The position numbers and the translations under genes were made by a program. A stretch of 64,000 nucleotides of DNA from Psammoneis japonica (Eukaryota), in contig QPGO01000041.1 in the NCBI GenBank assembly GCA_008632985.1, positions 372,001-436,000 on the forward strand, in the 5' to 3' direction. This document shows, one piece after another, positions 1 to 53,547 of the stretch (the stretch's first letter is position 1; every line of letters starts with the position of its first letter). The notes under the pieces were generated by a model. It was given only the letters and a program-made list of their open reading frames with translations. It was not told the DNA's origin and did no database searches.

Positions 1-2750
1 CATTTCATGTGGCTTCTCTGCCACTTTTGGTGCTTTGAATGTCCCAGGAGGAGAGCATCCATTGCAAGGAGTGATCTCCTCAGTCAAAGTGGAGCTTCAT
101 CACAAGCAAGAAGCAATTTACAAAAATGGGCTGGCATGGAAAGGGCCTGTCAAAAACACTGTTTCAAAATTTCAATTTGTGGAAATCATGCCCTGCAATG
201 AAACTGCAGAGAGAGGATTGAGCAACACAATGTTCAGAATTTTGAAATCAATTGGAAGTTTGACAGGGGATGAAAATGGTCAAATTGTCACTCTGCAAGA
301 ATTGCCAAAAACTGCCGCCTCATGGTGTGCAGCAACCAACTCACCATTGAGCATGTCTCCACTCTTGTTGACCCAACAAGCTCATGAAGTGGGCCATTGA
401 AAGCAATGACCCCCCAGGTTGGCAAGTGCTTTTCTCAGAGCTGCAGAGTCCCTGTGTCCCGTTGTTGGTGATCTGCATGTGGAGATGCATGTTGTTGCTG
501 GCATGTGCTCACTGTTTTATGGCAGATTCCTCTGACCAATCCAAGTGGCACTTGGTTGAATGTGCATCCAATGAAACACAATTCCCTGCCACAAAACATC
601 TTCAAAAATGCTGGCCTTGGTTCACAACCAGCTCACCTGACTCATCTGTTGTAAATTGAGTGAAACTGTGACCAAAGAGAAAGGATGTTGTCAGTGGACA
701 GTGGTTAGAAAGATGAAGAGAACACTGGCTCAATGAGACCCATGGCAAGACAAATCCTCATCAAAGACCTGTCTCCAACAAGCCAGCTCCTGTTGATGTG
801 GCAATGCCACTGCCAGCCTGGAATCATTCACAGAAAAGAAGAGAAAGTCATGTGTCAGACAAGAAGCTGGACTTGCCATGAAATTTTTTGATTGGGGCAA
901 AAGCCACAAGGAGCACAAATGGGCAATGGGAATTGGCAATCCTTGCCCATGCAAGATTCTCAGAAAGCACCTTCTTCCATTTTTTGCCAGTTTCAGCAAA
1001 CCAAACTACATTGATTTATTTGCTGCATCCATGGATGCCATCAGTCCAATTCAAGCTTGGTGGGGGGAAAGCACAAGAGGTCTGAACTGGTGTGCATCAT
1101 GCACAATGCACGCAATTCAGGGAGTGGGGTTAAACAGAAGAATTGCAGTGCACCTTTTGCATGACTGTTGCCAAATTGTGGATGAAAAGGGAAGGATGAC
1201 ATTGGAAGAAGACAATTTCCTCTGGAATGATGCACCTGTTGCCATTTTCAAGTTTGGCATGGAAGCAAAGAAGAGTCAAAATTCACAGAATTCCACCTCA
1301 GAGTCAAACGCAATCAGTCGTCTTTTTGGAGATCTGGCCAGGAAACTGGCAGCATGATCTCAAAAACATGTGCAACATGAAGAAAAGAAAACATGGTAAG
1401 ATTGAATTGGAGGGTGGTGTTGACAGTTCCAGAGAAGATGCCACAGATGATGATTGGGACCCAGCAGGTGCTGACAATCAAGACAGCATTGCAAAGATGT
1501 GCAAGTGCATTTGCATCCAGTGGTGAAGAAAGGAGAAAGTGTTGCTGCAAATGGACTCCACAAGCTCAAGACCTTGAAATTCAACAAAAACAAGCAAGTG
1601 CACAAGCACAAGAGATCATGTGAAAGGTTGGCAAAGACAGGAGAGCTGGGTGCTGGATGTAAAAAGCACACAGAGAGCCACTCAAGTGCCAAATCTTCCA
1701 CTGCCTTCTCAGCCCTTGAAATTGCTTGAAGACTGTTCAGGAAATGAGGAGAGTGAGGCCCTTGCATTTCAAACAATCCAGTTGCTGCTCCCAGATGGAA
1801 AGGAGCCACCAAGACATTTTCAAGTTGAGGGAACGGCCCGGCGGAGGGGCACATGTCCAAAGTGGGAACAGGTGTGGTGCTGCCAATGACATTCTCATTT
1901 TGCTGAAGTCATCATGACAGAAAAACAAGCCGGGGAAATCCATGGGAGGAACAAACAAGCAAGGAAGAAATCCAACAAGCAGAAAAAGGATGAAGCCAGC
2001 ATTGAAGAAGAATTCCTGGTGACTTGAAAGGATGAGATGGTTCACACTGTTGGGTCTGAGAAGCAAAAGAACAGGGAGGCGTGCACATGGTTCTGCAACA
2101 ACATCCTCAAATGCATGAAGAGCACTGCGATGTGGAGAAGGATGGTGGAGTCTGGCAGCACCAAGGCCACAGATCTGGCTGCGGCAAGCAACAAGGCACT
2201 GGCCCTGTTGATGATGGAAAACTGCTGGAAGATTTGGGAGCACAAGACCACGCAGGAGGGAAATGAAGAAGGGAGCGAAGAGGGGAAACCGGCACCATTG
2301 CACACAGACCCGTCACAACAGTGTGACTCTTGGAAGGATCAAGGAATGCTGTGCTTCAATGCTCTTCTTGGGGAGGCAAAGGAGTGGGCATTTTGACATG
2401 TGGCACACTGACGGAAAGAAAAAGGAGAGCAAAGGCAAAGGAAAAAAGGGAAGAAACACCAAAAAACCAGCGGATTTGGATGCAAGAACGCAAGCAACAA
2501 TGGAGCTTTCTAGTGACTGCAAGGAGGATGACAATGTGACAGATGCACCAGCTGACAAAAGAGATGAGAAGGAAGACAAAACTGGCCAGGAACACAGCGA
2601 TGGAAGCAAAGAAAGCAAAACTCCAGTGCCAGCCAATTGGAGATGTAGAACAACTGGGACCACAGCATTGACTTGGTGTTCATTGAAAATCAATGTTAAA
2701 AAGCAAAAGCAATGTGCCATTGTTGATTGAAAAGAGTGGACTGAATTCAT
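1..2750 (+). mobile_element. Decayed, probably transposon-derived coding remnant
   Basis: Fragmented protein-like ORFs, e.g. 2037-2396 'ASNKALALLMMENCWKIW...PLHT...SWKDQGMLCFNAL', reminiscent of TE-associated accessory ORFs. Family not identifiable by eye. Confidence 0.3.
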
Positions 2751-3383
2751 TGCAAGCATCACTTTAAATGCAGAAACTGCTGGCATGTGATGTGAAACAA
2801 ACCAATGACATCAATTGTCAGCTTCTGCAGTGGAGGAAGGCACACACAGAATGTGAAAAGAGGGGGGCTTTTTGAAAGTTAAAGTTGATTTCTTGCAGTT
2901 AAAAAGGTGTCTCCACAGCTGATTTAATTGACTGTCACAGATTAAAATTTGTTGCCACAACTAACAAGGTTTAAAACCACAAAAACATTGACTGTGAAAG
3001 GAACAAAAATCACGGTGACAAGGCATGTGATGATCACCACATTGCGGCCTCTGATGTTTCAGCAATCATGCCAAAACACATTGACAGACACAACTTTGTT
3101 CCACCACACAACAACACAGAATCTGTTTCAGATGCTTGTGGCCATGCAAAACCAACAGACTGGTGACTGCTGAGAGAAGCATGGCTCTGGCTAAATGCCA
3201 ATGACATTGTTGGCTAATTTGCTGCTTTACAAGAAGGGCAATTTTGGCAAAAATTGTTGGTTGCAGCATTTCAATCATGGCAAACTGCTCTGAAAATGAC
3301 AACTGTGGCATTTGAAGGTCAGAACAACACAGGCAAAGTGAAAGGAAATTGCAAAATCACCAGCCGTTTTTAAAAATGCCGGT

Positions 3384-5625
3384 TTGCACCAGTGCAGAAG
3401 AACAGCATTTCAAGAGAAAGTCCAACATTTCCTTTTCATCAAGCTCCACATTTTTCTCTACCATGACAGACTCTTCCAGGCAATCTTGAAACCGCTTTGG
3501 ATGCCAAGTCCCATTGAAGTGATCAAGAATCAACATGACGGCTGCAGTCTTCAAGTCTGTGCTGCTCGGGAAGCAACAGTCATGTCCATTTGTCATGTGA
3601 GAGAGACCATCCAGTGCTCGGAACAAGAGCTTGTATCTTCCCACTTCCAATGACATGCAGAGGGAGAAAGTGCCACCAATGCCAACTGCTTGCAGTGTTC
3701 CACCCCTGCTGAACACATTGACTCACTTGGGTGGCCCCATGCGGAGCAGTGGCAGATGCTCCATGCCTCTGTGGACCTGCTGCCTGCTGATCCTCCCATC
3801 ATGGCAGGGTTGTGCCGCCAGAAGCAAGACATGCAGATCCATTGAAGGGACCAAGAATCTTGGCTTCAAAACCATGACAGATTCTCATCATGAATCGATC
3901 CCACGAGTGGTCTGCGGAGCAAATGTAATCGTCAGCATTTTGATCACTGCCGTTGCCATGAATTGTGATGAGATTCGTTTGCATTGTGACACAGCCAGCA
4001 CAGGTCACGTCAGTCCCCAGAAATCCTCCTGGAGACGCGCTCATTGGCGACAGAGCAGACAATGTTGGAATCAATTCCAGCTGCGGAGAAAAACAAGACA
4101 ATGCTTGTCCAGGGGAGACAATTTTTCGTTCCTCCTCGGAAAGGCTCTTTAGGAATGAGCGCACTTGGTTCTCTTCCACCAACCTCAGGCGATTCGGGTT
4201 CATCATAAAAGCACTGACAAGTTCTTTGGTTTCCCATTCCATGCTCAAATGTTGGTCCCAATTAATCGCAAAGTCCTCTGGAATGTCATGCGAGCCCATT
4301 TTCGCTTTTAGTGTCATCACCTCATCAACAGCAAGCATCGGTTGGATGCCCTCCAGCCCATTGAGCGTCAGCAGGAAATTCGCCGCCGCTTCGTTCGGCG
4401 TCAAAATGACAACAACTGTGTTTCTTTCACGGGTTTGAGTTCTGATGGTCCGCGCAAGGTCTTCATCTATTTGATTCTTTCCATTCGGCATGAATTCATC
4501 AAGAAACAGACAGGACGCAGGTTTTCCTGGACGGCTGGCCAATTTTTCGGCAATCAGATCAATCAATCCAGAAGGGGGGTGTGCACAGTCGTGAAGATCA
4601 AGGAGATTCAACACATTTTCAAGGTGAGGTGTGCCTGAATCGGCTGGACTGAAGCAAGTGCCATTGTTGACCCCCCTCTTGATGTGTTTTTTGATGTGGG
4701 CCACACAGGCTGTTGTCTTTCCCATGCCAGGAGGGACGTGGGTGACGCAGACGGTTCCTGGACATGTGCATCGCTCTTGAATGCATTGCAAAATTGGTGA
4801 GCTGGTGCAATCGGGACGTTTTTTGCAGTGGTTCACGTCACAGGGAAACAAGAAGCAGTTTTCAATGCCCTTCATGACCTTCTGCTTTGCACCCGGGTTG
4901 TTGTTCTTCCATTTGGCATGAAGTGCTTGATCAACTCCTTCTTGCGTGAGTTTCATCAGCACCATTGACCCGAGCACTTCGCCTGCACACATGAGGGTGG
5001 CTGTTGCAGCAGTCCCCAAAAATGAATGTTCACAGAGCTGAATCGACAAGTTGTGTCGCAATCTCAGACGGCTGTGTTCGTTTTCTTTTTCATTTTGTTC
5101 ACATCTCACATCTGCCATCGTGCACATTTTAAATTCAATGGAGCCATTGAGATCTGAGCATTCATTTGCCATTGTCATGACACACATGTTTTTTAACAAC
5201 AAATGTTTGTGAAGATTGTTTCAAGCGTGCTTGCGTCAATTTGAAATTTTCGTGGTCCGCGCACTCGATGCATGGGATCTGGAATTTGGCCCCGCAGCAC
5301 AGCCGTCCGCGCCATCACCCCCCCCTTCACCCTGAGCCAGATGACAAAGACACCTTCTACATTGATGCACTTTGCAGATCATTGGACAACAGAGCACTCT
5401 TTTTTGTGGGTGGGGAAGAGATTGTCTCAAAGCAACTGCAGCCAACGTTCTTGTTGACAAGAGTTCTTTGCCCCAAATCAGAACAAGAGCATTTCAAAAG
5501 AAAGCCCAAGATTGCTTGTTCATCAAGCTCCACATTGTTGACCATGACAGGGTCTTCCAGGCAATCTCAGATCCACTTTGGTTGTCAAGGAACTCTGTTG
5601 AAGCTGTGGTCTTCCAAGTCCAAGA
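3384..5625. repeat. Diverged direct repeat pair (about 3384-3560 and 5468-5625) flanking the ATPase pseudogene
   Basis: Shared 'ttcatcaagctccacatt...ccatgacag..tcttccaggcaatct'. Minus-strand peptides NVELDEKEMLDFLLKC vs NVELDEQAILGFLLKC. Confidence 0.8.
3799..5202 (-). pseudogene. P-loop AAA+/STAND-like ATPase, hypermutated paralog of 48665-49609
   Basis: Walker A PPGMGKTT, Walker B LFLDEF, VVVILTPN. Only one Tyr in 467 aa. Lies in a TpA-depleted block. Confidence 0.7.
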
Positions 5626-5904
5626 TGAACATCAAAGCCTGTGTGCGAGGGGTTGATGAAACACAACACCCTGCAGCCAGAGCTGATGTTTGCAAGCATG
5701 CAATCCTTGCCAACTTGTTGTGCAAGTTTCCCTTCACCACCAGTCAAGTGCAAAAGCAATGTGTGCTCTGAAAATCAGCAGCACAGTCACTCCATTGCGG
5801 CCTGTTCCAGCTCCAGGTGCTCCGAGTGGGTTCGATTCCCATCATTTGCCCATTTTCAGGTTTGGCGCAATTAATTTTTTTCCAAATCCGTTTTTTGCCA
5901 AATC

Positions 5905-5955
5905 GAAGGGTGAGTGCACACTTTACATGCATTTTCGGGTGTGCACTCACCTTTC
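5905..5955. repeat. Hairpin/inverted repeat in a probable element terminus
   Basis: Perfect 13-bp arms ggtgagtgcacac (5909-5921) and gtgtgcactcacc (5939-5951), extendable to 17 bp with one G-T pair. Confidence 0.8.
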
Positions 5956-7001
5956 AATTTTTGAAACGATCAAAATTGAAGGAGTTCAATGAGCCAAACT
6001 GCGCAGAAATTCGGCCTCTCGTGTGATGAAAAGCAGATCACCTGGAGCTGGAACAGGCTTTGCCCTGTGCTTCAGACTGAAAGATGAGCCATTTTTCACC
6101 ACACTGGTTGCCATTGAATGGTGAAACAAAACAGCTTTGGAGGGACATGAGCTGGTCAGTGTTGAGGTCAAGAAAACAGGAACAGAGTCATTTGTCTGGT
6201 TGGTCTCAAAGGGTCTCCCAGGATGTGATTTTAAGAGCTGGCATTGACTTGCTGTCATGCATCATGGGGGGTCTCAAGATTGACAACATTCTGCATGTTG
6301 CAACAGCAGAGGTCATGATTGGCATCACAGAATGCCATGACCAGGTCTTCTTCTTTGGGCCACACAAAAAGTCTCGCCATCATGAGATCTTTGGCATCAA
6401 AATCTGCCTGAGTCAAGTGCAGCACCTTGTGGCCAAGTGTTCCCAAGTCAAAGGTCTCAGAAGCACATGACATGGCTTGGCTTGCAATTTCAACAGCATC
6501 ACCCACTTTGTTGGCATTGTCAACAAACCCTTGGTTGCTTGCGCGCACACACCAAGTCACGGAGTGTGGCGCCAACAAGCTTTTGTTCCTCTGACAAGAG
6601 TTTGTTCATTCTTTCTTCCCTTGTGACAGAACAGAAAAAGTCAATGGGACAAAGTCAAGGTGCCTGGTTGTTGCTTCCAACCCAAGTCAATGGAAAGAGC
6701 TTGGAAGCGACAATGAGTCCAGCAGGCACATCGTGGATCTACAACACGTCATCACCGGCAAAAGATTTGCAATCTCTCATCTCCAAACCCAGCCCAAGCA
6801 GCCTGTTGCAGGGCTCATCCATGGATGAAAAAAGAGAAAGTGCGCTCATTGTGAGACAACCACACATCCGCCATTTGCTTGGCCGCTTGCAAGGCTGCCA
6901 CACCATGATCTCTTTGTTGCTGGCTGCACAAAGAGGTGAGTGAGTTTTGTGGCAGGCGTCAATGAAATCATGACCAGAGGTGCACAGCTGTGAAAATGCT
7001 G

Positions 7002-7446
7002 TGCAACATGCAGCTGCTGATGAGAGTCAATGCATCACGGCGACGTGTTGCAGCCTTTAAATGTCAAAGGGCATGACAAAAACAACCTTTTGTCTGCATG
7101 CACACTGCACTGTGAATTCACAGCGGAGTGGTTCATCGCAACCATCAGGCAGGAGGCCAGGGGTTCGAAACCCTGAGTGGGAGTTGTCTGCAGCAATGTT
7201 GATCACTGTCGAACGCGTAAAACTCTGTGCAGTTCTGCATGTTCCTTCGCACATGCCCACACTGTTCCGCCAAAACCGTGCAGTGTCAGCACACATCAGT
7301 GAAGAGCCGCATGGACGCATGACACATGGGGAGGAATGCAACACACAGCTGCTGATGAGAGTCAATGCATCATGGCGACGTGTCACAGCCTTTAAATGTC
7401 ACAAAGGGCATGACAAAAACAACCTTTTGTCTGCATGCATGCTGCA
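7002..7446 (+). repeat. About 110-bp direct repeat (7002-7109 and 7337-7446)
   Basis: Shared 'cagctgctgatgagagtcaatgcatca...gggcatgacaaaaacaaccttttgtctgcatgca'. Confidence 0.9.
7114..7183 (+). pseudogene. tRNA-derived sequence (tRNA pseudogene or SINE head)
   Basis: A-box-like cagcggagtgg (TRGCNNAGTGG with TA>CA) and B-box ggttcgaaacc with a T-arm-like stem. No clean acceptor stem. Confidence 0.4.
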
Positions 7447-7777
7447 GCTGGCGTGTTTGTTCCCATCAAAAATTGCTTGTGACACTCCATTGAATGAATC
7501 TGTGCTGGTGAATGATTGTTGGCTGCAACAAACAATGAGCCAGAAGGGTCTGCCAAAATGTTGCCAGCAAGCGTGCAGACAGATGTTGCCACAGCAGCTC
7601 CCTCACCAGCCTGGGGGGACGAGACAGCCGAAGCTCACAAGGAGATGACACATCTGATCAGATCACCCAGAAGACTGGCTGAGGTGAGCTTTTGTGCTGG
7701 ATTGCCATGGTGGTGAGTTTTGGTGTGTCAAACTGTTCACCCGCTTGTTTGGAAAAAACAGAAAAGATGCTGCTGCT

Positions 7778-8990
7778 CTGCTTGGCAGGCACAAAGCAGC
7801 AAAGCAGGCACATGCAAGAGCGGCTGCATCCTGAAAAAATTGTCCCTGATGAATTGACAGATGCAATTTTTCACACTGCAGCTGCGCGCTCATCAGCCAC
7901 TCATTTTTGCCATGTGTTGTGTGCACTGGTGCCAAGAGCAGAGCTGTCAGAGTGCAGACAACGCTGCTCTGGTGTGTGATCTCCCCCCCCTCTCATTGCT
8001 TGTGGCGCATGTGCAGAGACATGAACTCCTCACTGGAGAGCACACACTTGTTGTGCCAAGGGGGGCAATTTTGCAAGCACAAGCTGTGGCACATCTTCTT
8101 CAAATTGCTTTTGATCAGCTGATGTTGGCTTGTTTTGACGNCACGCAATGGCGTCGACTTCGGACCATTTTTCACGGTTTAAAAGGCATAAACGATTGAT
8201 ACACTTGAATCAGTCGAATATATTGAGGAAATATACATGGTAATAGAAAAGAAATGGTCCTTAGAGGCAAATTGTGAGTGAATAGAGGCTCAATTGTTGT
8301 TGCTGACAGATTTAGCATTATTGTGCCGCGCTGCAGCCTTCAACAAGCATTTTCACTATTGTTGTTGATGACACAGACTATATCAAATACGGAGATCCTG
8401 GTCATGACATTCAATTTTCCATAAGGCTGAAAAAAGTGGGCCGTCATGGTCACTGAAAGCCATGGCCGGTTTGGCTGTTTGTTTGTTCGAGTTTATTCTG
8501 TTTATTTTACTTAGAAGCCATTGATATGATCAATTTTATTAAATATGTACGGTGTTCAATAAAGCATTAAAAAATTATTTTTTCTGCGAAAAGGGGCATG
8601 TGCGCGCCACCTAAGTCTGGAACAAGTCCTGCTTGGCAGGCACAAAGCAGCAAAGCAGGCACATGCAAGAGCGGCTGCATCCTGAAAAAATTGTCCCTGA
8701 TGAATTGACAGATGCAATTTTTCACACTGCAGCTGCGCACTCATCAGCCACTCATTTTTGCCATGTGTTGTGTGCACTGGTGCCAAGAGCAGAGCTGTCA
8801 GAGTGCAGACAACGCTGCTCTGGTGTGTGATCTCCCCCCCTCTCATTGCTTGTGGCGCGTGTGCAGAGACATGAACTCCTCACTGGAGAGCACACACTTG
8901 TTGTGCCAAGGGGGGCAATTTTGCAAGCACAAGCTGTGGCACATCTTCTTCAAATTGCTTTTGATCAGCTGATGTTGGCTTGTTTTGACA
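7778..8990 (+). repeat. Near-identical 360-bp duplication (7778-8140 and 8629-8990) across a scaffold N
   Basis: Copies differ by 3 substitutions and 1 homopolymer indel. The first copy ends exactly at the N at 8141, so this is probably a haplotype or contig overlap. Confidence 0.85.
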
Positions 8991-9399
8991 ATGAGTTTTG
9001 TGCTCTTTTTGGCACCAAGCAGTGCTGCCGGAGAGCCACGCAGCTTCGTTGTCACATGGATTGGCAATGCCATCAGAAAGTGGCGATTTATGATGAATGT
9101 GCAATTTTGCATTTTGAAGAGCATGTTGAGAGAAGCCGCGATGAATGACGAAATTGAAAATGATGTTTTTGTGTCCCCCAGGCATTCCCCACGGCATTCA
9201 CAAGGTTTCGAGGTTTCGGGTCTCCGATCCACCCCTGACCAGGGGTGAACAAGAAATGACTGTGACGTGGCCGTTTCTCATCACAACATTCTTCGAGTTG
9301 ATGACGACTGATGACTTGTGACAACGCGAACTTGCGAACTTGTGTGCTTGCTTGTGAACGCACTTTATCGTTGTGTTGCTGTGAAAAGAGTTTCGAAAA

Positions 9400-11469
9400 A
9401 TGGAGGGCACTGTAATGGAAATTGGACGTGTCGTCGGTGTGAAAAGGAACGAGTGTCATATCAAACCACAGGATTGTTTGTTTGGTAGAGGAAATCGTTG
9501 TCGCGACCATGTCGGATCTCGACGCTTTCATGAAGTCTGTCGCGATAATCTGACAGACTACTACTCGACAAATACGCATGAGGAAAAGACGATCATAGCC
9601 TACCGTGTCGTCAACGCAATTCATGCTCTGGATGGACGATTTCTCAAGCAACAGGCGAAAAGTAATGAATTCGCTGAAATGGATACTGAAACAGCGATCC
9701 ATAAGACAAAGCAGACACTTCGGGACATGGGAAAGAAAAGACCTCTGCGGCGCTTGTTACTCCAGAACCATCACAGCTTCAGGACTTGGTGTGTCAAACG
9801 TTTGATCAGCAGCAAACGAAGAACAGTCTCCTACCAGATGCTGCTATGGTTCCTCGGCACACTGTCACGCCACCGATTGAAGCATCTGTAAAAGAAAAAC
9901 ATGGTTTTGATTGGTTACTTCCAGGTCTTGACCCGCAGCTATCGAACCAAACTATTTCTCCCCCCTTTGTTGCCCATGACAGTGGCACTTCTGATCAGCC
10001 TACTTTGTTTGCAGCATCGAAAGTGCGTGTAGCAACAAATACAGGCGAGGCTGCACAAAATGACCTGGCACCAGTGTCTTTACGCAAGCATCCTGGTTCT
10101 GATGTTTGTGAAGGGAAACCCATGCTATCCAGATTATTCGGACTTCAGAAGCATCTCACATCACCGACACGTCGTCAGTAGTCCCCGGCGAGAAGAAACC
10201 AGAAGATGTATCCGGTAAACCTCCCGAAAGCACTGGAGGCGATAAGTACTCCCCAGACGAGAAAGAGGCGGCGAAACAGTTGTACTCGTTGCTCTGTTCA
10301 GACGAGGCTCCAAGTTCACCGAGGAGGATGTGGAGAAAGAAAGGAAACAAATGACTGAAGAAGAAAGCTTGTCAGTTCTTCAAGATATGCTTGGAAACCT
10401 TCATATCGCAAAGCCTGTTCGGAAGCGCGTTAAACGAACTGTGCCGCCATCTGCATTGACCACATCTCTGTTGAATGATATGAAAGTCCAGTTGGATCTC
10501 ATTCCTGAAGAAGACAAACTCGCGCTACTGGAGGCACAAGTCAAGGCACACGATCGTGCCTACGAGTTTAGCGATGAACGGCTGGAGCGCTTTCTACACT
10601 CGGAAAGTATGGATTCACAGGTAAGCATTGTAAACCAACTGGTTGTTTTGGATTCACAAGTGAAAGGCAAATGAAACGTAGTCTTACATGCAACTTTCTT
10701 TATCACTCTCTCAGAAAGCGGCGAGGCGCTTAGTGACGTATTGGGAAGAAAGGCGCAAGCTCTTTGGTGCGGACAAGTATTTGTGTCGCATGACCTTGTC
10801 CGAGGCGTTGCGTGACGATTTAGGCGTGCTCCGGGAAGGAATCTGCCATCTTTTGCCAGGCTTGGATTCTTCCGGTCGGCATCTCATATACATAGACTTT
10901 GCCCGTCGCAGTGAAAAAAGACAAGGGCACACATTGGAAGGCACGGTACGTATTGAAATACCCACAGCACCGGTTGCCGTCAGTCATTGAGACAAAACCG
11001 AACGTTTCTTACACTACACACCTGTTACTTTCTGTAGATTCGAGCGTTTTGGTACATGATTGAGGTGATCGCTCGTGAAAATTTCAACTTTATTCTGGTC
11101 AATTGGTTAAACGAAGCAACGCTTTGGGATTTCGACCGGGAGTTGGACAAGAGACAGATTTACCTCATTGACAATTGCTTCCCCATTCATTTGTGTGCCG
11201 TGCACGTATGCTGTCCTATTATGCTCGTTGAACTGTTTATCAAAGCTACTTATTATGCCTTGTTGGACAAGAGCCATCGCCAGCGCACACTAGTGCATAG
11301 TGTTCCCGACAAGAAGATTGTCGGTGTGTTGGCTGACTTTGGGATTAGCAAAGAAGTTCTGCCGACTGAAATGGGAGGAGATTTCCGCCTTGACGCAATT
11401 GGCTGGCTCTCAAGCATGATCGCATTGGAAGAATTGGAAAAAGGACACAGAACGGAACATCGTATATAA
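9400..11469 (+). CDS. DUF6824 plus CRAL-TRIO (Sec14-like) domain protein
   Basis: N-terminal DCLFGRG..HVGSRRF..GRFLK..KTKQTLRD (DUF6824). C-terminal AARRLVTYWEER, DSSGR, FPIHLCAVHVC, LPTEMGG (CRAL-TRIO). GT-AG introns 10621-10714 and 10946-11037. Apparent frameshifts between 9750 and 10330. Confidence 0.75.
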
Positions 11470-26927: not shown

Positions 26928-28223
26928 TTACAAATCCATCAAGAGCGGCATGTACAAGGCATCGTTACGGGCAAAGTCTTGCCTATCAATGTCTTTACAC
27001 AGGGACGCCACTTGAGAGACTTTGCATTCTTCCGTCGTGACTACAAAATCCGCCGCCATGCGATCGACAATTGGGTTTTGTAAAATGGAATGAATCGAAA
27101 CTCCATGCTTTTCCGCCAGTTCACCCATTTTTCGAATAATCCCCAAGGAATCCATGTAGGGGATACGAATGTAAAAGGGCGAACAAAAGTCGTGATCCAA
27201 GTCTATAGACGACTCGAGCGGGAAGGGATTGGTCACGGCTTGGTTTTGCGTCATGCGCAACACATCCGCCACGACGGAATTGGCCGTCGGGAAGCGTCCC
27301 GCACCGGGACCGGTATAACTGCACGTGCCCATGTTGGCCGACTTGATGGCCACCGCATTGCCACTGCCCTTGGCAGAAGCCAAGAGATGCGTCAGCGGGA
27401 CCATTTTGGGTGACACATAGACCGAGAGCGATCCATCGTGTTCGCCATACTTGGACATGCGAGCGGCCGTGCCGACGAGTTTAATGGTGCATCCCAACAA
27501 TTTGGCATACTCAAAGTCTACTGTCGATATGGAGGTAATGCCTCGGCAGGGTATTTGCTCCACATTTTCAATCGACGTGCCAAAGGCCAGTTTGGCCAAG
27601 ATGCAAATCTTGGCACGAACATCGTGTCCCTCGACATCGGCGGTTGGATCGGCTTCGGCATAGCCCAACTCTTGCGCTTCAGCCAGCACTTCTTCATAAT
27701 CAGCACCGCTTTCCATTTTGCCCAGCATGTAATTGGTAGTACCATTACAGATGCCCTCGACTTGATGAATCACATCACCCGTATAGCATGTCTGAAGGGT
27801 TTGAATGATAGGAATTCCCCCACACACGGCTGCTTCATAGGCAAATTTACCCTTACTCTGCTTGACTGCGTTTTGAATTTCCGTTAAATGCTCTGCAATC
27901 AACGCCTTGTTGGCCGTCACAACCGATTTGTTTTGTTTCAATGCTTCCAACACAACCGTCTTGGCCAACGTCGTTCCACCCATGACTTCCACGACGACAT
28001 CAATGGAATCATCCTTGAGAATGGAATTCACGTCGGTGACAAATTTCGATTGGGCATAGTCCAAGTGAAAACTCCGAGGTTTGCTCAAGTCACGGACACA
28101 AACCTTGGTCACGACACACGACGCGCTCTTGCGGCCCATGAGAATTTCATACACCCCACCACCCACCGTGCCGCCGCCGACGAGACCGATACGAAGAGGA
28201 CGACCGAGTGCTGAAGAAGACAT
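26928..28223 (-). CDS. hom: Homoserine dehydrogenase with C-terminal ACT domain
   Basis: GLVGGGTVGGG, VVTANKALIA, YEAAVCGGIPII, GICNGTTNYML, AQELGYAEADPTADVEGHD, GPGAGRFPTANSV. Confidence 0.95.
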   Translation of the reverse strand: MSSSALGRPLRIGLVGGGTVGGGVYEILMGRKSASCVVTKVCVRDLSKPRSFHLDYAQSKFVTDVNSILKDDSIDVVVEVMGGTTLAKTVVLEALKQNKSVVTANKALIAEHLTEIQNAVKQSKGKFAYEAAVCGGIPIIQTLQTCYTGDVIHQVEGICNGTTNYMLGKMESGADYEEVLAEAQELGYAEADPTADVEGHDVRAKICILAKLAFGTSIENVEQIPCRGITSISTVDFEYAKLLGCTIKLVGTAARMSKYGEHDGSLSVYVSPKMVPLTHLLASAKGSGNAVAIKSANMGTCSYTGPGAGRFPTANSVVADVLRMTQNQAVTNPFPLESSIDLDHDFCSPFYIRIPYMDSLGIIRKMGELAEKHGVSIHSILQNPIVDRMAADFVVTTEECKVSQVASLCKDIDRQDFARNDALYMPLLMDL

Positions 28224-28529
28224 GATGAGAACGTGATGAGAGTGATTGATGTGGTGTCAACAGGATTCGGCAGAAGTGTGAGGGTAGTATGATATAGGTA
28301 GGTAGTGAGGGTTCTGTCGTGATTGCCACCATGTACGCGATTTTGTACGGGAATTCTACGTAGCGGGTTACACGCGGATCTTGCGTGGGAGAAAGACAGA
28401 CGGTAATCAATTGCACGCTCGCCCTGCTGTATGAACCTCGCATCGATCGCGCGCGAACTAATCTCTGGCGGGGGTTTGTTTCGAGAGAACAACCCATTTT
28501 GGACGGCTCAGTCAATGTGATGTTCATTT

Positions 28530-31500
28530 ATTGGCATGCAAAATCTTCCCTTTGTGGAGCCTGCCCTTTGCTCCAAATGCAAGTTGAACACAAGATTTGC
28601 AGTCTTTTTCAGTGCGCTTGCCAGAGTTGTTTTGTCGTTCGTGTGCGCAATGAATGTGCGAGTGCGCATGTGCCACGCGAATGACAACAGACGATTTGTG
28701 CACCTCTGGTGTTTGCCTTGTGTGCGCAGCAGGGGGCTTTCAAAAGGCCGCATTTTCAGAGCAAGATGCCAGCCAGCAAGATGCCAGAAAGTGACCCCCC
28801 CACAAAAGAAAGGGAGTCTCCATGACCAGCGCTGCTGCAGCTTTGTGTGCAGCCTGACATCAAAGATGAGGCGGCTGCGGGAAAAGAAAAAATGAGCGGG
28901 AAAACTCTGGAGCCAATTTGCACTGGCCAAAGTGCTGGTGGTGGGCTGCTCTGCAGCTCTTTGCAATTTGGGAATCTGCAAGCCAGTGCCTGCCAGGCAG
29001 CCCAAAAGATTTTTTTGGAGTGCGCCCCCCCCAGCATCTGCCCGAGGGCAGGAGGCAGCATGGGAGAAAGACATTGGAGAAGAAAAAAAAGCCAAAATCC
29101 TTTGTTGTTGCTGGGTGTTGGACTCACAAGTCCCAAATCTCCAGGCTTGCTTTGAGTCTCTGCCAGTCTGGTGATTGTGGAGTTGCAGCACTCTGTGGAA
29201 TGAAGCGCACAGATTGACAGAATGTTTCAGCACAAATTCCGTGCCACCTCGCCCACCCCCGCCGCCGCCATGCACCGTTTGCTTGCCCCGTCAGTTCGGT
29301 GCTCGTCAACAAGTTGTCTTCCCCTCAAAACATGAGATCAAAGAAAATGGCATCCATGCCAGCTCCACGCTCCGCCACGCTGATGACCCACGCCCTTTCC
29401 CCACGCTGCATGATGTTGTTGTGTGGAGCGAGACGGGTGGTGAAAGGTTCTCAAAGAAAAAGTAAAGTCCTCTTCTGCGTTTTGAATTGGAAGTCAGCCA
29501 CCCCAGCTGCACCATCATGGGAGATGCTCCAAATGATGGTGGCATCCGGGCCATTGCCGATTTCCATGATTTCTTTGTGAAACAGAGCAACGATGGAATT
29601 GTCCTAAATCTGGATCTGTCTCACAATTGGATTTAGGAATCCAAAAAGGTGCTAGAGGAGACATCATCCTCCAGATGATGAGTCATGAGCGCAAAGAATG
29701 GAAAAGGCGAAAGCTGCAGATCTGTTTACATTGCAGTCGCAAATCCGTTGTCATGCCAGAGGAGCTGACGTTGGAGGAATTTTTGACTCTCCGTGTTGCC
29801 GCTCCATGTCTCCTGGAAGACTCAAATGCGTTTCATTCCGCAGTTCGTTTTCTGATTCTCGTGCAAATCGGACACTGTTGTCCACAAGAATTGAAGTGTG
29901 GAATGAATTTGAGCAGCCGTTGAGAATTTTCGTGTCCATGGAGAGATAAAAATACCTGGCTTTCAATGTCAGAATCTGCGCAAGTCAACTGATGTTGGAA
30001 ATTGTTGGATGGAGAGTGATGAAGAGAAGCATTTGGTTGATAAAGTGTTTGAACCGCTGATGGAGGCTGGTCTCGTCGGCAATGTCATCCGAGGTTCCAT
30101 GTTTTGCCAGGGTGAACCCAACTCTTCAGCAACGGGATCTGGCAACAAAACGAAAATGGTGGGAGAGATCAAGGCAACGCATGGCTTGCCCCTGCCAATG
30201 ACAGCGCAGGAATTGGCTGCGCAATGCAATGAAGCGAGAGCACTCATTGATGAATTTTGTAAAGAAAGGTCAGATGACCAGCGACGCCCCATGGGCTGGT
30301 CGCATGTGGGACACCCCATCTCACAGATTCTTGGATGCATGGTCCTCAACAATTGTCACCATGGTGTGCTGACTGGTGGAACAAGAACGCATTTTATTTT
30401 GCTGTCTGGGGATGCCGAGTCTGGCAAAGAGAAAGTCCGCATCAGTGACGCGTGGTTCATTGGGCAAGAAGGGCACCTCCATGTGTGGGCCTTCTTCTAC
30501 TCCATTGTGCGCGATGGCGTGCAACCAGACCTCGACAAGAGTGGGCTTGCTCAGGAGTGGCTTGAAGGGATGCAGGACAAACTGAAGAAGAGACCTCCTC
30601 CTCCGACCAATCAAGGGGCATCTAAACGAAAATTTCTTTTGCCGTTTGGTCGTTGGGTTTGGGGGGGAAGTCGAGACAGTTCAAAATCTTGGTCCTCGGC
30701 TACAAAGATCATCCCTGCGGTGACTCTCAGTGATTTTGAAGTGACTGGACCAATTGGATGTGGTCGTCGTGGGACCGCATTTAGTGGGAAGTGGAGTGGG
30801 GAAGTAATTGCACTTAAACTCTTTGACACTCACAAGAACAATGGCAGGGACGCTTGTGAGCGCGAGGTTAAGGCCCATGAGCATTTGAAAAAGGCATGGG
30901 GTCGACTTGTTCCGACACCAAAATTCATTGCCGAAGCTTTTGGTGTGATCTATTTTGGAATGCAAATGGCTGAGGAACCCCCACAACGGGCTCGTCTTGA
31001 AGATTGGGATGAAGTTTTGTGGGAGCTAGAGGAGACGCATGGTTTTCGTCATTTGGATGTGGGCGGTGATGAACGCGGGCCGAATTTTCGAAATCACATG
31101 ATGCTGCCTTACAAGTCCAAAATGGAGGAACATGAATTGCTGTGATTGGCACGATCTAAGCCATGTTTAAATTAGCAACAATGTCTTGAGCAGACCACAA
31201 ATCTAGCTGCTAGAGGGCAACTTCGAAGCGTGCGCAACGACATGATGATGTTGTGTGTTCGTGGTCACCACACAACGATTGCTTGACAACAAAATGTGGA
31301 GTCTCTTGTCTTGTGCAAACAATGAAGGGGTCCATGGGCAACCAACAAATGACAGTCTGACGTCCAAAAAGAGGATGCGACCTGTGCATTCCAAACTGTG
31401 AGTGAGGCAGACTCAAACTGCAGCAATCGTCTGTCTTTGTGCACATGGAGTGAAAGGAGAGTGCATTTTCTTTGTCTCCGATTTGACTCCATTGCCTTTG

Positions 31501-33054: not shown

Positions 33055-33835
33055 CATGATGTCATACTCGGCTCGCAAGCGCACCGCATCGACTTCGCAC
33101 CCTCGAGCCACCATGCCGAAAAAGGCAAGGAGCTCCGGTCCTCAATCATGGTGGATCGGCAGGCATCAAAAGCCTTTGCTCATTGACTGTCCCACTTGGA
33201 GAAGGACCAAGCCAAGGGCAGAGGAGCCCGCTGGAACCCTGTCTTGAAAAAGTGGTGCATTTCTGCCGACGTGTCCATCAAAGGTTTCGAAAAATGGCTG
33301 CCGAGAAACTCAAGTCTGCCCTTTGAGCTGCATGTCAAGGGCTGCATCGAAGGAGACACTCTCTCCTTGAAGTCAAATGTTGAAAAGTGGCATTGTTGGG
33401 GCTGTGGAAAGAAAGAGCATCACTCATGCAAAGATGGCAGGTCTCGTAAGAGTGATTGTTCAGAGTGCGATCGCCAAACCATCAGCATCTCCGAGCCTCC
33501 AACACTTGGGATGAACACGTCTTTGAGGTTGATGACAACCAGGGAAAGACTTTTTGGATGCCGAATTTTGCAGCGACGATTGTCTCGAGAAAGTCTTTCC
33601 CGTTCTCTTGCGAGGTTTCGAATGGTGGAAGTCCAACAAGAAACGCGACGCTGCTCTGGTTGTCCATTCCTGGTACGACGAGACAAAGAGTGTGTGGGCC
33701 AACAAGGTGTGGGAATGTCATGATTATGAACTTGCACTTGAAGCAATGGGATGGGAAGAAATCGGCTGGGCAGCGGGCCATTGGGCTCTAGGAGGTGCTC
33801 CACTTAAAAAAGACTCGGAGCAGATTAATGGTTGA
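33055..33835 (+). pseudogene. DUF5710-domain gene, frameshifted and TpA-poor
   Basis: EKDQAKGRGARWNPVLKKWCI fits DUF5710 (EKD.AK..GArWd...K.WY, with Y>C). CxxC motifs follow. Confidence 0.6.
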
Positions 33836-46517: not shown

Positions 46518-47750
46518 CCATGAAAGGTGTCCAAGATTGTCTTTCATGGAGCACAGCACCACAAATGCCTTTTCTTGCTTTCACAGCATGGATGTCCAAG
46601 CAACACACAATGCTCAACTTCCTCAATGCGGGTCATCAGCAACTCATTCACCATCTTTTCCAGAGACTGTGCTTCTTCTCTGCTGTCATGCTGAGCTCAA
46701 AAGATGACATGCAGTGCACCCACTTTGCACAGCTCTTCCAGCAAGGTGTGGTCACAGTGTTGCATCATGCATGAGCCCCATCCTGGCCAGTGCTGCACAC
46801 CCAAACAAAGTGTGCTTCATGCACAAACCCTGCTGATGTTTGTCCAGGCAGGGAAAAAGCAGGGAGGACAAGGCTGCCTGTGTGGTGGCCATGCACCAAA
46901 CTGAACAAGAGCCAAGTGATCATCTTCATGATGGAAGCCAAGAGTGAGTGGCAACTCTTTGTGCCTCAAGGCAGTGAACACAGATTTCTCCATGTGTGAG
47001 ACCAGGAGCTGCTTGACAAAGCAATCGGCCCAATTTCATGTGCAGCTTGACAACATTTCTTGGGCAAATGCAGAAGTGGGGATGGGTTGCACAAATCATT
47101 CTTGTGCAACCATGATGATCCCACAGTGATGACATGCAGAGAAGCTGCAGCCAATGAATCTCCACAGGCAACACAACAGCATGTGGGCACATTTGATGGC
47201 TTCCACCTTGTCCACATTCATGAACTGGGGTGGAGCATGTGAATCTGTGAGGTGGTCTTCATCAGCATCTACAAACTGAGAAAGAGAGCCTGACAAGGAA
47301 GAAGCCATGCTGGGTGAGCCACCGGCATTGTTCACAGTTTGGCCAAGCCCACCTTTGCCAGGCAGAGGAATGCCACCAGGATGTTGGGGCAAATTCAGCA
47401 GTGAGGGACTGCAAGAATGGACTTTGTCTTCATGTCCTGCAGGAACCCAAATGTCTTTGCCTTTTGAACAAGTCACAGCATCTTCCCATGGACTGCCCCC
47501 CCCTTTGTCCTTGTTGTCCTCACAATCCTTTTCACCTTGAGTCCTGGCAGCACATTTGTCATGTGTGCAATGAAGAGAAGAGTCATGTTTTGTAAGTTGC
47601 TTGCGATTTGTGCCAGTGATGACAGGGGTTTGATGCTCCACTTGCAGAGCCTTCAAGGACAGTTGGTGGCCGTTTCTGTCCCAGGCGCCTTCGGAACCTG
47701 CACGTTGGGAATCTCATCCTTTTCAAAATCATCTTCTGTCAAAGCTGCAG
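45120..47750. other. TpA/CpG-depleted block
   Basis: Almost no TA or CG over about 2.5 kb. Cys/His-rich spurious ORFs. Confidence 0.85.
46473..46515 (+). repeat. (GA)n microsatellite
   Basis: Uninterrupted GA run. Confidence 0.95.
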
Positions 47751-48066
47751 GTGCTTTATCCTCCATTTTGCTGGTTGTTTCTTTTGTTTTTTCGAGATTG
47801 CGTACATCATCGGTTGACACTTTCATTACTTTTTGTGAAATGTTGTAATGAGAAGGCAATCCAGTCGAAGGCTTTGGAATTGAAGAAATGCCATAATGGA
47901 AATCAGATGTTAGTATGGCTTACGAAACAAAAAGATAACTCCCCACACGATGAATCGATCGAAATCCCCCTTGTTTCTGCACAGCACTACATAGAATAGA
48001 CTTTTGATTTTATGATCTTCTTAATCTTTCTATGGTATACCAGGTAATGGCTGACTTCCTCAAACT

Positions 48067-48565
48067 TCAAAAGTGTCGGTCGAATCGTCGCTGGCCGCCC
48101 ATTCCAAATCCGACCACGAGGAAACAATCGTAGCCAACTTCACTCACGTCTGATGTGTAAGCAATGTCATATGCCAGTTCGTTTTCCAACCGCTGGCGTT
48201 GAAAAAGAGTATACAAAACTTGCTCCACCACATCACTGATTCCACCTCGTTTCTTGATTTTCTTGTGAATCGTAAGAGCCACGAGTAGTCCAACAAGGCA
48301 ATACGACGATAGACCAAATCTGTGACGAGGCGAGTGCATACGATTACCCTGACTCTGTTCATCACTTTCGGCAGGAAGGGCTCGACCCGACTTTTCATCA
48401 TCGTTTCTCTTCTACGCTGAAGCAACTTTCGAAAGCACCACTGTGCTTTGCGATTCTTTTGTCATTGTCATTACGATTGAGCCTGTCTGCTGAGGCAAAG
48501 AGTTCTCTGTTGAAGGTTTTCGTGGAACAAGAAAAATCGCATTTGGGAATTGATCCAAGGACGAC
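48067..48565 (-). pseudogene. 5'-truncated, frameshifted copy of the 52843-53547 gene
   Basis: Shares SSLDQFP.AI.LVPRK and EQVLYTL.QR.RLENELAYDIAYTSDVSEVGY, split over several frames. Confidence 0.8.
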
Positions 48566-48664
48566 GCTATGCAGTCTAAGACGTCTCGTCGTTTTATCAA
48601 CGAGAGACGATCTGTTATCGGTGATCATCATCGTCTCTTTGCGTTGTTGCCATGCAGTTTTGCT

Positions 48665-49609
48665 TTAAAGCAGGTCGTTAGCACTTGCTGGTGGTCCCAA
48701 ACGATTGTCAAGATTTTGGATCGCTTTCTGGATGGCCATCGTTGGCGTTGGTGTTCCAGCAAGCCAAGGCAATACTTTGTCTACGACTTCACCATCGAAC
48801 TTCCCTGGAAATCGCTGCAAAATCAGGATAGTTAATCGCTCATCTGTCCAGGTTACGGGTATCCAGGGGACGGGGTCCGGTGGGATAGCCGCAGCGGCTT
48901 CCCATCGACTGGGCCGTGTCAACCCCGGTAGGGGACCAATCTTTTGCCATTTGTTCATGGCACACAAAGCATCGGCGATTTTCTTATTCTGGGTGACGAA
49001 TATCGCAGTGAAACCAAAATGGTTGTTGTAAATCTGTCGGAAAAGTGCCTCAGCAATTTTCATATTAATGCAATCAGGACCTTCGTCGTTAAATTCATCC
49101 AAGATAAGCACAGCATGAGGCCTGTCCAAGGCTGTTGGTGATGGTCTCAACGCCGCGACAAGGCTAGCAACCCAATCCCATCCTGCCTTCTTCGCTCCCA
49201 GAAGCGTGGCGACGTGACTAAAGTAATCATGGTCGACAGCTTGACCAGATATCATCAAAGCGGGTCCGTTGTTCTTTTTCATTACGTTCTCGACGAAAAT
49301 ACGGCATGCAGAGGTCTTCCCAGTGGAGGGTTCTGCGTACAAGACATGCGTCATGCCAGTTGAGTGAGCAGAGTAGCTCTTTTCGAGGATTTCGAGGAGT
49401 GGAGAGCGCACGAAAGGGATGTCTTGCAGCTCAGGTAACACCTTGCGTTGATTCGCCATACGAACGATGGAGTCTTTCAACCCTGCGTCAACCGTTGCTT
49501 TAGAAATTGCGGTAACGCTTTCTTTCAGAGTATTGAGAGCAAAATCCATGGGGCAGACTGCTTTCGTTTGCCGGCTGCGCTGTCGTTTGGTTGTTGTTGT
49601 TGTTGACAA
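48665..49609 (-). CDS. Small intronless AAA+/STAND-like P-loop ATPase
   Basis: Intact 314-aa ORF. Walker A AEPSTGKTS, Walker B LILDEFN, TAIFVTQN. Confidence 0.8.
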   Translation of the reverse strand: MSTTTTTKRQRSRQTKAVCPMDFALNTLKESVTAISKATVDAGLKDSIVRMANQRKVLPELQDIPFVRSPLLEILEKSYSAHSTGMTHVLYAEPSTGKTSACRIFVENVMKKNNGPALMISGQAVDHDYFSHVATLLGAKKAGWDWVASLVAALRPSPTALDRPHAVLILDEFNDEGPDCINMKIAEALFRQIYNNHFGFTAIFVTQNKKIADALCAMNKWQKIGPLPGLTRPSRWEAAAAIPPDPVPWIPVTWTDERLTILILQRFPGKFDGEVVDKVLPWLAGTPTPTMAIQKAIQNLDNRLGPPASANDLL

Positions 49610-52650: not shown

Positions 52651-52842
52651 GCAATCTAGTCGAAGGCTTTGGAATTGAAGAAATGCCATTATAGAAATTA
52701 GGTATTAGGATGGCTTGCGAAACAAAAAGAAAGCTCCCTACACGATGAATCGATCGAAATCGCTCTGGCTTCTGCACAGCATATAATAGACTTTGGATTT
52801 TGTTATATCTTTCTATGGTATACCAGGTAATGGCTGACGTCC

Positions 52843-53547
52843 TCAAACTTCAAAAGTGTCGGTCGCGTCGTCGCTGGCCGCCCATTCCAAATCCGACCAC
52901 GAGGAAACAACCGAGCCGTAACCAACTTCACTCACGTCTGATGTATAAGCAATGTCATAGGCCAGTTCATTTTCCAACCGCTTGCGTTGCAAAAGAGTAT
53001 ACAATACTTGCTCCACCACATCATCACCGACTCCACCTCGTTTCTGGATTTTCTTGTGAATCATCGTCAGAACCACGAGCAGTCCAACAAGGCAATACGA
53101 CGATAGACCAAATCTGTGATGAGATGAGTTTGAATTTTGCGTGCGATTACCCTGATTCTGTTCATCGCTTTCGGCAAGAAGGGCTCGACCCGACTTTCCA
53201 TCATCGTTTCTCTTCTTCGCAACTTCCGAATGCGCCATTGAGTTTCGCGATTCTTTTGTGATTGCCTTTACGATCAAGCCTATCTGCTGAGGCAAAGAGT
53301 TCTCTGTTGAAGATTTTCGTGGAACAAGAAGAATCGCTTTGGGGAATTGATCCAAGGACGGCGCCTTGCTGCTTTGAAGGCGTAACGCCATTGTGCTCAT
53401 TCTTCGATTCTTTCGTCTTGCTGAGCTTCTTTTTGCGCTAGCCACGAATGGGGGCGGTGACGATGTTAGCATCAAGATCAAACCAAAAATGCCAAGTGCG
53501 CTTCCGACCATTTTAATGATTGGTGGTTGATTTCTCAGATTCGTCAT
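52843..53547 (-). CDS. Small membrane protein of unknown function
   Basis: 234-aa ORF with an N-terminal hydrophobic segment and one further TM. Normal composition. Confidence 0.65.
   Translation of the reverse strand: MTNLRNQPPIIKMVGSALGIFGLILMLTSSPPPFVASAKRSSARRKNRRMSTMALRLQSSKAPSLDQFPKAILLVPRKSSTENSLPQQIGLIVKAITKESRNSMAHSEVAKKRNDDGKSGRALLAESDEQNQGNRTQNSNSSHHRFGLSSYCLVGLLVVLTMIHKKIQKRGGVGDDVVEQVLYTLLQRKRLENELAYDIAYTSDVSEVGYGSVVSSWSDLEWAASDDATDTFEV

Follow-up and report, generated by a model that had tools for sequence, protein, structure and literature searches.

How can a gene lose every tyrosine of its core as well as its native stop codon and still be read as one long open reading frame (ORF)? 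The question is raised by ORF 3799-5202 on the minus strand of the window, the 64-kb stretch of contig QPGO01000041.1 analysed here. Judged by its full-length similarity to the database protein P0001 (E 8e-129) and by the presence of Walker A and Walker B motifs, this ORF is a member of a eukaryotic P-loop (AAA+-like) nucleoside triphosphatase (NTPase) family of roughly 340 amino acids that normally ends in a CaaX-like Cys box. We propose that two transition processes, one at TpA and one at CpG, probably converted this ATPase gene, which would now most likely be a non-functional relic.

Tyrosine and stop codons of the ATPase gene

P0001 (378 amino acids), the single match in a search of 5.8 billion proteins, is 63% identical to the window protein over 325 amino acids. 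All eight tyrosines that P0001 has in the aligned core are replaced in the window protein, five by Cys and three by His, compared with 104 of 310 non-Tyr columns that differ (Fisher p = 2e-4). The replacement codons at these eight sites (Table 1) are without exception TGY or CAY, each reached from TAY by a single transition, and Phe does not occur among them. Using P0001 as the query of a HMMER search over 1.84 billion representatives, we collected 92 family members, and an alignment was made of 23 family members together with two window ORFs. Conservation reaches 70% or more in 67 of its columns. Tyr is the consensus in three of them (22 of 22, 19 of 23, and 21 of 23 relatives); at these the window protein carries Cys, His, and His. 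Such retention across divergent relatives makes Tyr the ancestral residue at these three columns. The 337-codon core has 5 TA dinucleotides vs ~34 expected from the normal genes of the window, and the encoded protein contains no Tyr and 7.7% His plus Cys; the family representatives (n = 92) have a median Tyr content of 2.67% and a maximum His plus Cys content of 7.64%. The sole Tyr of the ORF sits in the read-through tail beyond the core.

The same columns can be read in the opposite direction. Fungal repeat-induced point mutation (RIP) turns CpA/TpG into TpA, lowers G+C, and creates new TAA and TAG stops, and an exchange between His/Cys and Tyr, read backwards, is the signature that it leaves. 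The relatives would then have gained their tyrosines through a RIP-like change of CpA to TpA and the window copy would be the original. We give this reading almost no credence: Tyr is kept in 19-22 of 22-23 divergent relatives, the distant subfamily included, and it is the window copy that is the outlier, with the relatives showing a normal Tyr content (median 2.67%). The direction of change is from Tyr to Cys or His.

A change of the same kind is found at the end of the gene. Cys-x-x-x stands at the C-terminus of 24 of the 48 representatives of at least 250 amino acids (for example CSVM, CRIL, and CVIL), a motif that we take to be CaaX-like. In the window ORF, GCVTM aligns to the Cys box of the relatives and is followed by CAA and then by 59 codons to a TGA, so that 60 residues come after CVTM and the very C-terminus carries no Cys-x-x-x. 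The simplest reading of the alignment is that a TAA behind the Cys box has become CAA. Two of the family representatives, P0023 and P0071, also read on beyond the Cys box (CCTIS then W..., CCVK then M...) and have a normal Tyr content; further stop losses or faulty gene models may explain them.

A preliminary description of this locus had predicted that TAY should have turned into CAY or TGY and stop codons into Gln. Both predictions hold, the first at 8 of 8 P0001 tyrosines and 3 of 3 family-consensus tyrosines, which are now TGY or CAY codons, and the second at the CAA that stands in place of the relatives' stop. At the protein level we did not find the homologs with His or Cys at these positions that the description had named as speaking against it. 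Its starting point had been a comparison of two ORFs of the window, and its counts of 1 Tyr in the 467 amino acids of 3799-5202 vs 4 in the 314 amino acids of 48665-49609 on the minus strand are correct (the latter also has 6 His and 4 Cys). BLASTP does place His opposite Tyr, with THVPPGMGKTTAC against LYAEPSTGKTSAC and TPHLENV against HDYFSHV (167 residues, 25% identity, E 2e-8); two such columns at 25% identity are weak evidence when taken alone. The description had also called 48665-49609 an intact paralog. The ORF is related and of normal composition, but it is not a close paralog, as it groups with Cys-box-less members including P0066, P0072, P0077, P0088, and P0093 in a distant sister subfamily. 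What the description had not reported is that CpG>TpG/CpA changes occur alongside and are about as many: a CA/TG>TA change reverts 13 of the 112 differences from P0001, and a CA/TG>CG change reverts another 10.

Composition of the surrounding DNA

Over the whole window, the observed/expected (o/e) ratios are 0.38 for TA, 0.74 for CG, 1.38 for CA, and 1.39 for TG, and the local values fall into two classes. Blocks of 0.9-8.2 kb, totalling 27,000 of 64,000 bases (42%), have a TA o/e of 0.04-0.12, a CG o/e of 0.23-0.63 (a single 900-bp block reaches 0.83), and CA/TG at 1.3-1.9, vs a TA o/e of 0.4-0.8 and a CG o/e of about 1 outside of the blocks. The cut-off also caught two weaker short stretches of 400 and 600 bp. 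Block edges are sharp, falling within 100-200 bp. The ATPase ORF lies in the block at the left end; the window begins inside this block, and its left edge is beyond view. Set against the remaining DNA, the blocks show losses and gains that balance: as a share of all dinucleotides, TA changes by -3.60%, CG by -3.28%, CA by +3.00%, and TG by +3.29%, so that a combined TA+CG loss of 6.9% stands opposite a CA+TG gain of 6.3%, with G+C at 0.484 in the blocks vs 0.468 in the rest. Two transition processes that converge on CA/TG would yield both this balance and an unchanged G+C. Stop codons over the six frames go from 0.0375 to 0.0279 per codon in the blocks. The fall is small because TGA rises (0.0197 to 0.0244) as TAA plus TAG drops (0.0177 to 0.0035).

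No strand-coordinated runs of CA or TG were found (runs-test z -1.5 to +1.0 in 8 of 8 blocks), and with CA and TG interleaved at random no processive one-strand signature is visible at saturation. The 119 TA dinucleotides that survive in the blocks are non-random in context relative to normal regions, with TTAA 5.8-fold, CTAA 2.9-fold, and TTAG 2.2-fold over-represented and ATAC, ATAT, and GTAC at about 0.1-fold. From these contexts, RTAY looks to be the most sensitive and YTAR, above all TTAA, the most resistant or else the most often re-created. In the normal regions the TA o/e of 0.4-0.8 (4.1% of dinucleotides) is itself low and CA/TG is at 1.1-1.3; the bias may possibly extend, in weaker form, across the whole region.

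Blocks with such sharp edges, which include summed word depths of about 3,400, 12,700, and 82,900, could also belong to a foreign or mobile element that natively avoids TA and CG, with the ATPase gene captured and recoded. Under adaptive avoidance of this kind one would expect changes to Phe or by synonymous routes and a preserved stop, yet 8 of 8 tyrosines have become Cys or His and the stop has been lost. Pfam found 0 transposable element (TE) or viral domains in 133 block ORFs, the only matches being DUF5710 and one weak DUF1450, and relatives of the ATPase family or of the family of the second gene described below were found nowhere in the viral_contigs set. We regard such an element as very unlikely.

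Two proposed transition processes and the open frame

We propose that several sharply bounded blocks, which hold highly repeated DNA, have been acted upon by two context-specific transition processes that would have run near completion. The first would change A to G at TpA on either strand, giving TpG or CpA, and the second would change C to T at CpG on either strand, giving again TpG or CpA. Within the gene, the TpA process would have changed every TAY (Tyr) to TGY (Cys) or CAY (His) as well as the TAA behind the Cys box to CAA, adding the 60-residue tail, and the CpG process would have changed some Arg codons to Cys, His, or Gln. Neither of the two would be able to create TAA or TAG, and an in-frame stop could arise only by CGA>TGA. 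For this reason a gene that is hit would stay open and come to resemble a Cys/His-rich protein.

The probability that a random 337-codon frame in the blocks stays open is p = 7e-5. ORF 3799-5202 would be open because it was once a gene and because TpA>CpA/TpG never creates a stop. A stretch of 337 codons should contain about 4 CGA codons, and the core still has 2; with so few, the open frame needs no selection and is no evidence of selection. The preliminary description had likewise held that mutated genes stay open, and an open look-alike ORF is what we see. It had attributed this to the erasure of TAA and TAG, but the main cause would be that in-frame stops arise only from CGA.

Table 1. Features of the ATPase ORF, its block, and other elements of the window
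Feature	Position	Strand	Details
ATPase ORF	3799..5202	(-)	467 aa, Y1 H16 C24, TTG to TGA
In-frame 5' extension	4993..5202	(-)	codons 1-70; no counterpart among relatives
Family-matching core	3982..4992	(-)	M71 to M407, 337 codons, aligned with relatives
Span of the eight P0001-Tyr codons	4510..4809	(-)	residues 132 C, 140 C, 152 C, 155 H, 173 H, 193 H, 206 C, 231 C
Walker A GMGKTT	4711..4728	(-)	G161, K162 invariant in family alignment
Walker B-like LFLDEF	4492..4509	(-)	L234, D235, F237 nearly invariant
CVTM box	3982..3993	(-)	aligned with relatives' C-terminal Cys-x-x-x (CaaX-like) box
CAA (Gln) codon	3979..3981	(-)	stop position of relatives; putative former TAA
Read-through tail	3799..3978	(-)	59 codons + TGA; no counterpart among relatives
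TA- and CG-depleted block around the ORF	1..8200	.	TA o/e 0.08, CG 0.33, CA 1.71, TG 1.70, G+C 0.47
Direct repeat copy 1	3383..3508	(+)	126 bp; 79% identical to 5467-5589
Direct repeat copy 2	5467..5589	(+)	partner copy beyond the other side of the ATPase ORF
Homoserine dehydrogenase gene	26928-28223		window gene
Second gene with the same signature	29913..31142	(+)	in another depleted block (TA o/e 0.19)
Comparator ORF	48665..49609	(-)	normal composition, TA o/e 0.58; distant sister subfamily without Cys box

A second gene with the same signature

The pattern recurs in ORF 29913-31142, for which we found four homologs (P0094-P0097, 37-51% identity, 378-561 amino acids, no Pfam domain on record). 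At the 9 columns where at least three of the four homologs have Tyr, this ORF has His five times, Cys three times, and Tyr once. It differs at 27 of the 128 columns that are invariant in the four homologs (7 TA-type, 5 CG-type, and 15 other changes, some of them radical), which suggests relaxed constraint. Arg is replaced by His at 3 conserved columns. The ORF also has a 9-residue deletion near its C-terminus and is without ~130 N-terminal residues of the longer homologs.

Accuracy of the sequence and repeats

TA and CG, the two dinucleotides lost, are palindromes of the sort that DNA modification typically targets, and the depletion could in principle be a sequencing or assembly artefact such as systematic miscalls at modified bases. 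Logan contigs of the public DNA run X1 (31-mer, word depth 50-70) cover 1-1938, 2926-4262, 4802-5827, and 6003-7029 with 1, 4, 4, and 3 other letters. These 12 letters in 5.3 kb of block leave a match that needs accurate reads, even though X1 may be the assembly's own data. Additionally, the changes are coherent at the codon level in two genes, and the unchanged G+C rules out a bisulfite-like conversion. An artefact is in our view highly improbable.

Among the 14 differences listed from X1, which lie in low-depth stretches, 11 are CpG<->TpG/CpA, one is TpG in the window and TpA in the contig, and two are other changes. Few TA targets are left in the blocks, and TpG/TpA accounts for 1 of the 14 listed. 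Four of the differences listed are in the ATPase ORF, two of them in its core, and both of these are non-synonymous (L339P, E356K). Word depth over the ORF is 55-117, similar to the adjacent low-depth stretches. Elsewhere in the block the summed word depth in X1, a quantity that is not a copy number, reaches about 3,400 (1891-2970), 12,700 (5671-6210), and 82,900 (6751-7560) vs 50-70 nearby. An X1 contig of ~80% identity overlaps 4230-4912, and its loose ends contain TA, which indicates a paralog in the same sample.

Direct repeats at 7002-7112 and 7337-7450 are 91% identical at a distance of 335 bp, and one contig jumps back by 332. Together with the word depths, these repeats suggest that block 1-8200 holds a highly abundant repeat about 335 bp long. 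A 362-bp duplication (7778-8139 and 8629-8989, 99% identical) adjoins a single N at 8141; it may reflect how the assembly was joined and not a repeat of biological origin.

Functional status of the ATPase gene

Several observations weigh against a relic. The 337-codon core has neither a frameshift nor an in-frame stop, and the two Walker motifs, A (GMGKTT) and B (LFLDEF), are intact. Of the 67 conserved columns, the window protein departs from the family consensus in 14 (3 Tyr, 2 CG-type, and 9 other) and other members depart from it in 3-20, so that the 53 columns kept are within the family range. The CG o/e is 0.66 in the ORF vs 0.1-0.4 in many flanking ORFs, and selection is one possible cause of this better-kept CG. 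Ordinary differences make up 89 of the 112 from P0001, from which it follows that the ORF was not copied from P0001 recently and has had a long independent history as a gene. On the wider proposal, a foreign origin of the blocks draws no support from the 133 block ORFs and their 0 TE/viral domains, and X1, since it may be the sample behind the window assembly, shows accurate reads with this sequence and is not independent support.

The gene could thus be still functional under an extreme TpA/CpG mutation bias, tolerating Cys or His for Tyr and a 60-residue tail. On the other side, its three most conserved tyrosines are lost and the Cys box, buried behind the 60-residue tail, is no longer C-terminal. 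The replacements are transition products and never the conservative Phe, both core differences from the X1 contigs are non-synonymous (n = 2), and an open frame is expected even without selection. The DNA around the gene is also CpG-depleted and includes stretches where word depth is very high. A codon-phase test of TA removal by synonymous routes yielded counts too small for a reading either way (for example, 44 TG at phase 2-3 vs 33 expected). With regard to the usual marks of a pseudogene, frameshifts and premature stops are absent, and conserved residues and the native stop have been lost. We consider a functional gene unlikely and a relic the likely status of 3799-5202, with its function probably gone.

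Relics of this type will be annotated as real Cys/His-rich proteins. Their hallmarks, taken jointly, are the lack of Tyr, a TA o/e below 0.1, and a read-through beyond the C-terminus of the family.

The NTPase family

Against the Pfam family AAA_22 (PF13401, cut-off 27 bits), ORF 3799-5202 scores 19.3 bits (E 0.0014) and ORF 48665-49609 scores 22.8 bits, both below the cut-off. A structure model of the member P0003, made from 32 aligned members, has a predicted local distance difference test score (pLDDT) of 87.5 and a predicted template modelling score (pTM) of 0.83. In this model a helical domain comes after an alpha/beta P-loop core, and the C-terminal Cys region is predicted to be disordered. 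Foldseek gave weak AAA+ matches of this model in the PDB, the first being Aeropyrum ORC2 (1w5s_B, E 4.9e-3, TM 0.32), with proteasome Rpt subunits, RFC, DnaA, MuB, and Msp1 among the lower matches. An Atlas look-up returned AAA ATPase and ATPase_2 clusters, which serve as leads only. A search of solved structures with the family profile yielded nothing beyond P-loop fragments of guanylate kinase (E 0.045 or worse), and no relatives of the family were found in the metagenome_contigs set with P0001 and alignment queries. The likeness to AAA+ and AAA_22-type (ORC/Cdc6-like) NTPases consists of the Walker A and B motifs, the weak AAA_22 match, and the weak fold matches. To our knowledge, a C-terminal Cys-x-x-x box is not a feature of these families.

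Comparison with known hypermutation systems

The process in fungi that we referred to above, RIP, resembles what we observe in being a context-specific transition hypermutation that is restricted to blocks with sharp bounds and repeat content and that also damages the genes lying in them. It is opposite in direction: the window blocks lose TpA, keep their G+C, and lose stops, and the composition that marks RIP is absent from them. A further difference is that ORF 3799-5202 is at the word depth of its unique neighbours, and no close copy of it was found within the 64-kb window. The ATPase gene would offer a clean gene-level readout of TpA-directed hypermutation, the mirror image of the stop-creating fungal process.

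The CpG part of the change resembles decay by deamination of methylated CpG. The CpG o/e in the blocks is 0.2-0.6 with a matching gain of TpG/CpA that balances the deficit, and 11 of the 14 listed X1 differences are CpG transitions. Such decay would suggest that the blocks are methylated at CpG. Decay of this kind can account for no more than roughly half of the dinucleotide loss and for no change at a Tyr or stop codon.

The TpA part has its closest counterpart in Bigelowiella natans, as described in the main text of a 2026 preprint. In mutation-accumulation lines, 230 of 231 mutations in integrated nucleocytoplasmic large DNA virus (NCLDV) and virophage regions were A>G or T>C, and Mettrop et al. 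state that all such mutations fall at TpA, with a rate of ~1000x the genome baseline (bioRxiv 10.64898/2026.01.13.699255). The B. natans genome has 124 TpA-depleted, CpA+TpG-enriched clusters (Rho TpA at most 0.43, CpA+TpG at least 1.52, length at least 3 kb) with 96 mostly unannotated genes, and an ADAT2-like deaminase was proposed as the enzyme (bioRxiv 10.64898/2026.01.13.699255). CpG, tyrosine, stop codons, pseudogenes, and diatoms are not mentioned in the main text, and the supplementary tables may bear on these topics (bioRxiv 10.64898/2026.01.13.699255). A full-text literature search, diatoms included, found no other papers on TpA>CpA/TpG hypermutation.

The window blocks have the composition that defines the B. 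natans clusters, TpA depletion together with CpA/TpG enrichment. As far as the main text of the preprint goes, they share with B. natans the same both-strand rule (TpA>TpG, TpA>CpA) and the arrangement in clusters of several kb with mostly unannotated ORFs. They differ from that account in being near saturation, with a TA o/e of 0.04-0.12 over 42% of 64 kb compared with a Rho of 0.45 in the NCLDV region, in the co-depletion of CpG, and in having no viral or TE domains in the 133 block ORFs. By analogy, the TpA process could be an enzymatic, TpA-directed deamination of adenine as proposed for B. natans. The window is a new, well-resolved instance of this recently described hypermutation, and it adds the coding consequences and the coupling to CpG loss. 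The two losses coincide in the same sharply bounded blocks, a topic absent from the main text of the preprint.

Should the source lie outside the chlorarachniophytes, the process would reach further than has been reported. The long single-ORF genes of the window are a lead to a diatom-like protist, as is the homoserine dehydrogenase gene at 26928-28223, whose nearest Atlas cluster has 61% of its members in Eukaryota and diatoms as the most frequent recorded phylum; both would also be compatible with a chlorarachniophyte. We tentatively suggest, with somewhat less than even confidence, that the source is a non-chlorarachniophyte, in which TpA-directed A>G editing and CpG decay would act as a RIP-like defence, saturated over a large share of the genome and destroying cellular-type genes in the targeted blocks. 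If true, TpA editing would be a widespread eukaryotic defence and Tyr-free, Cys/His-rich orphan ORFs would be its relics.

Additional features of the window

No Rfam families were found in the window, no tandem repeats in 1-9500, and no homologs of the block ORF 28511-29290. The only clear Pfam match in a depleted block, DUF5710 (E 8e-8), is in 33187-33720 on the plus strand, a Tyr-free ORF of 178 amino acids with a TA o/e of 0.06 and a CG o/e of 0.69. A segment of ~860 bp is duplicated at 47704-48567 and 52517-53364 (85% identical), mostly in normal-composition DNA. It begins at the edge of two depleted blocks, and one copy lies directly beside ORF 48665-49609. As evidence on the process this duplicated segment was rejected as uninformative. 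The two 126-bp direct repeat copies that flank the ATPase ORF encode on their minus strand a common NVELDE..L.FLLKC peptide piece, in which 18 of 30 residues are identical.

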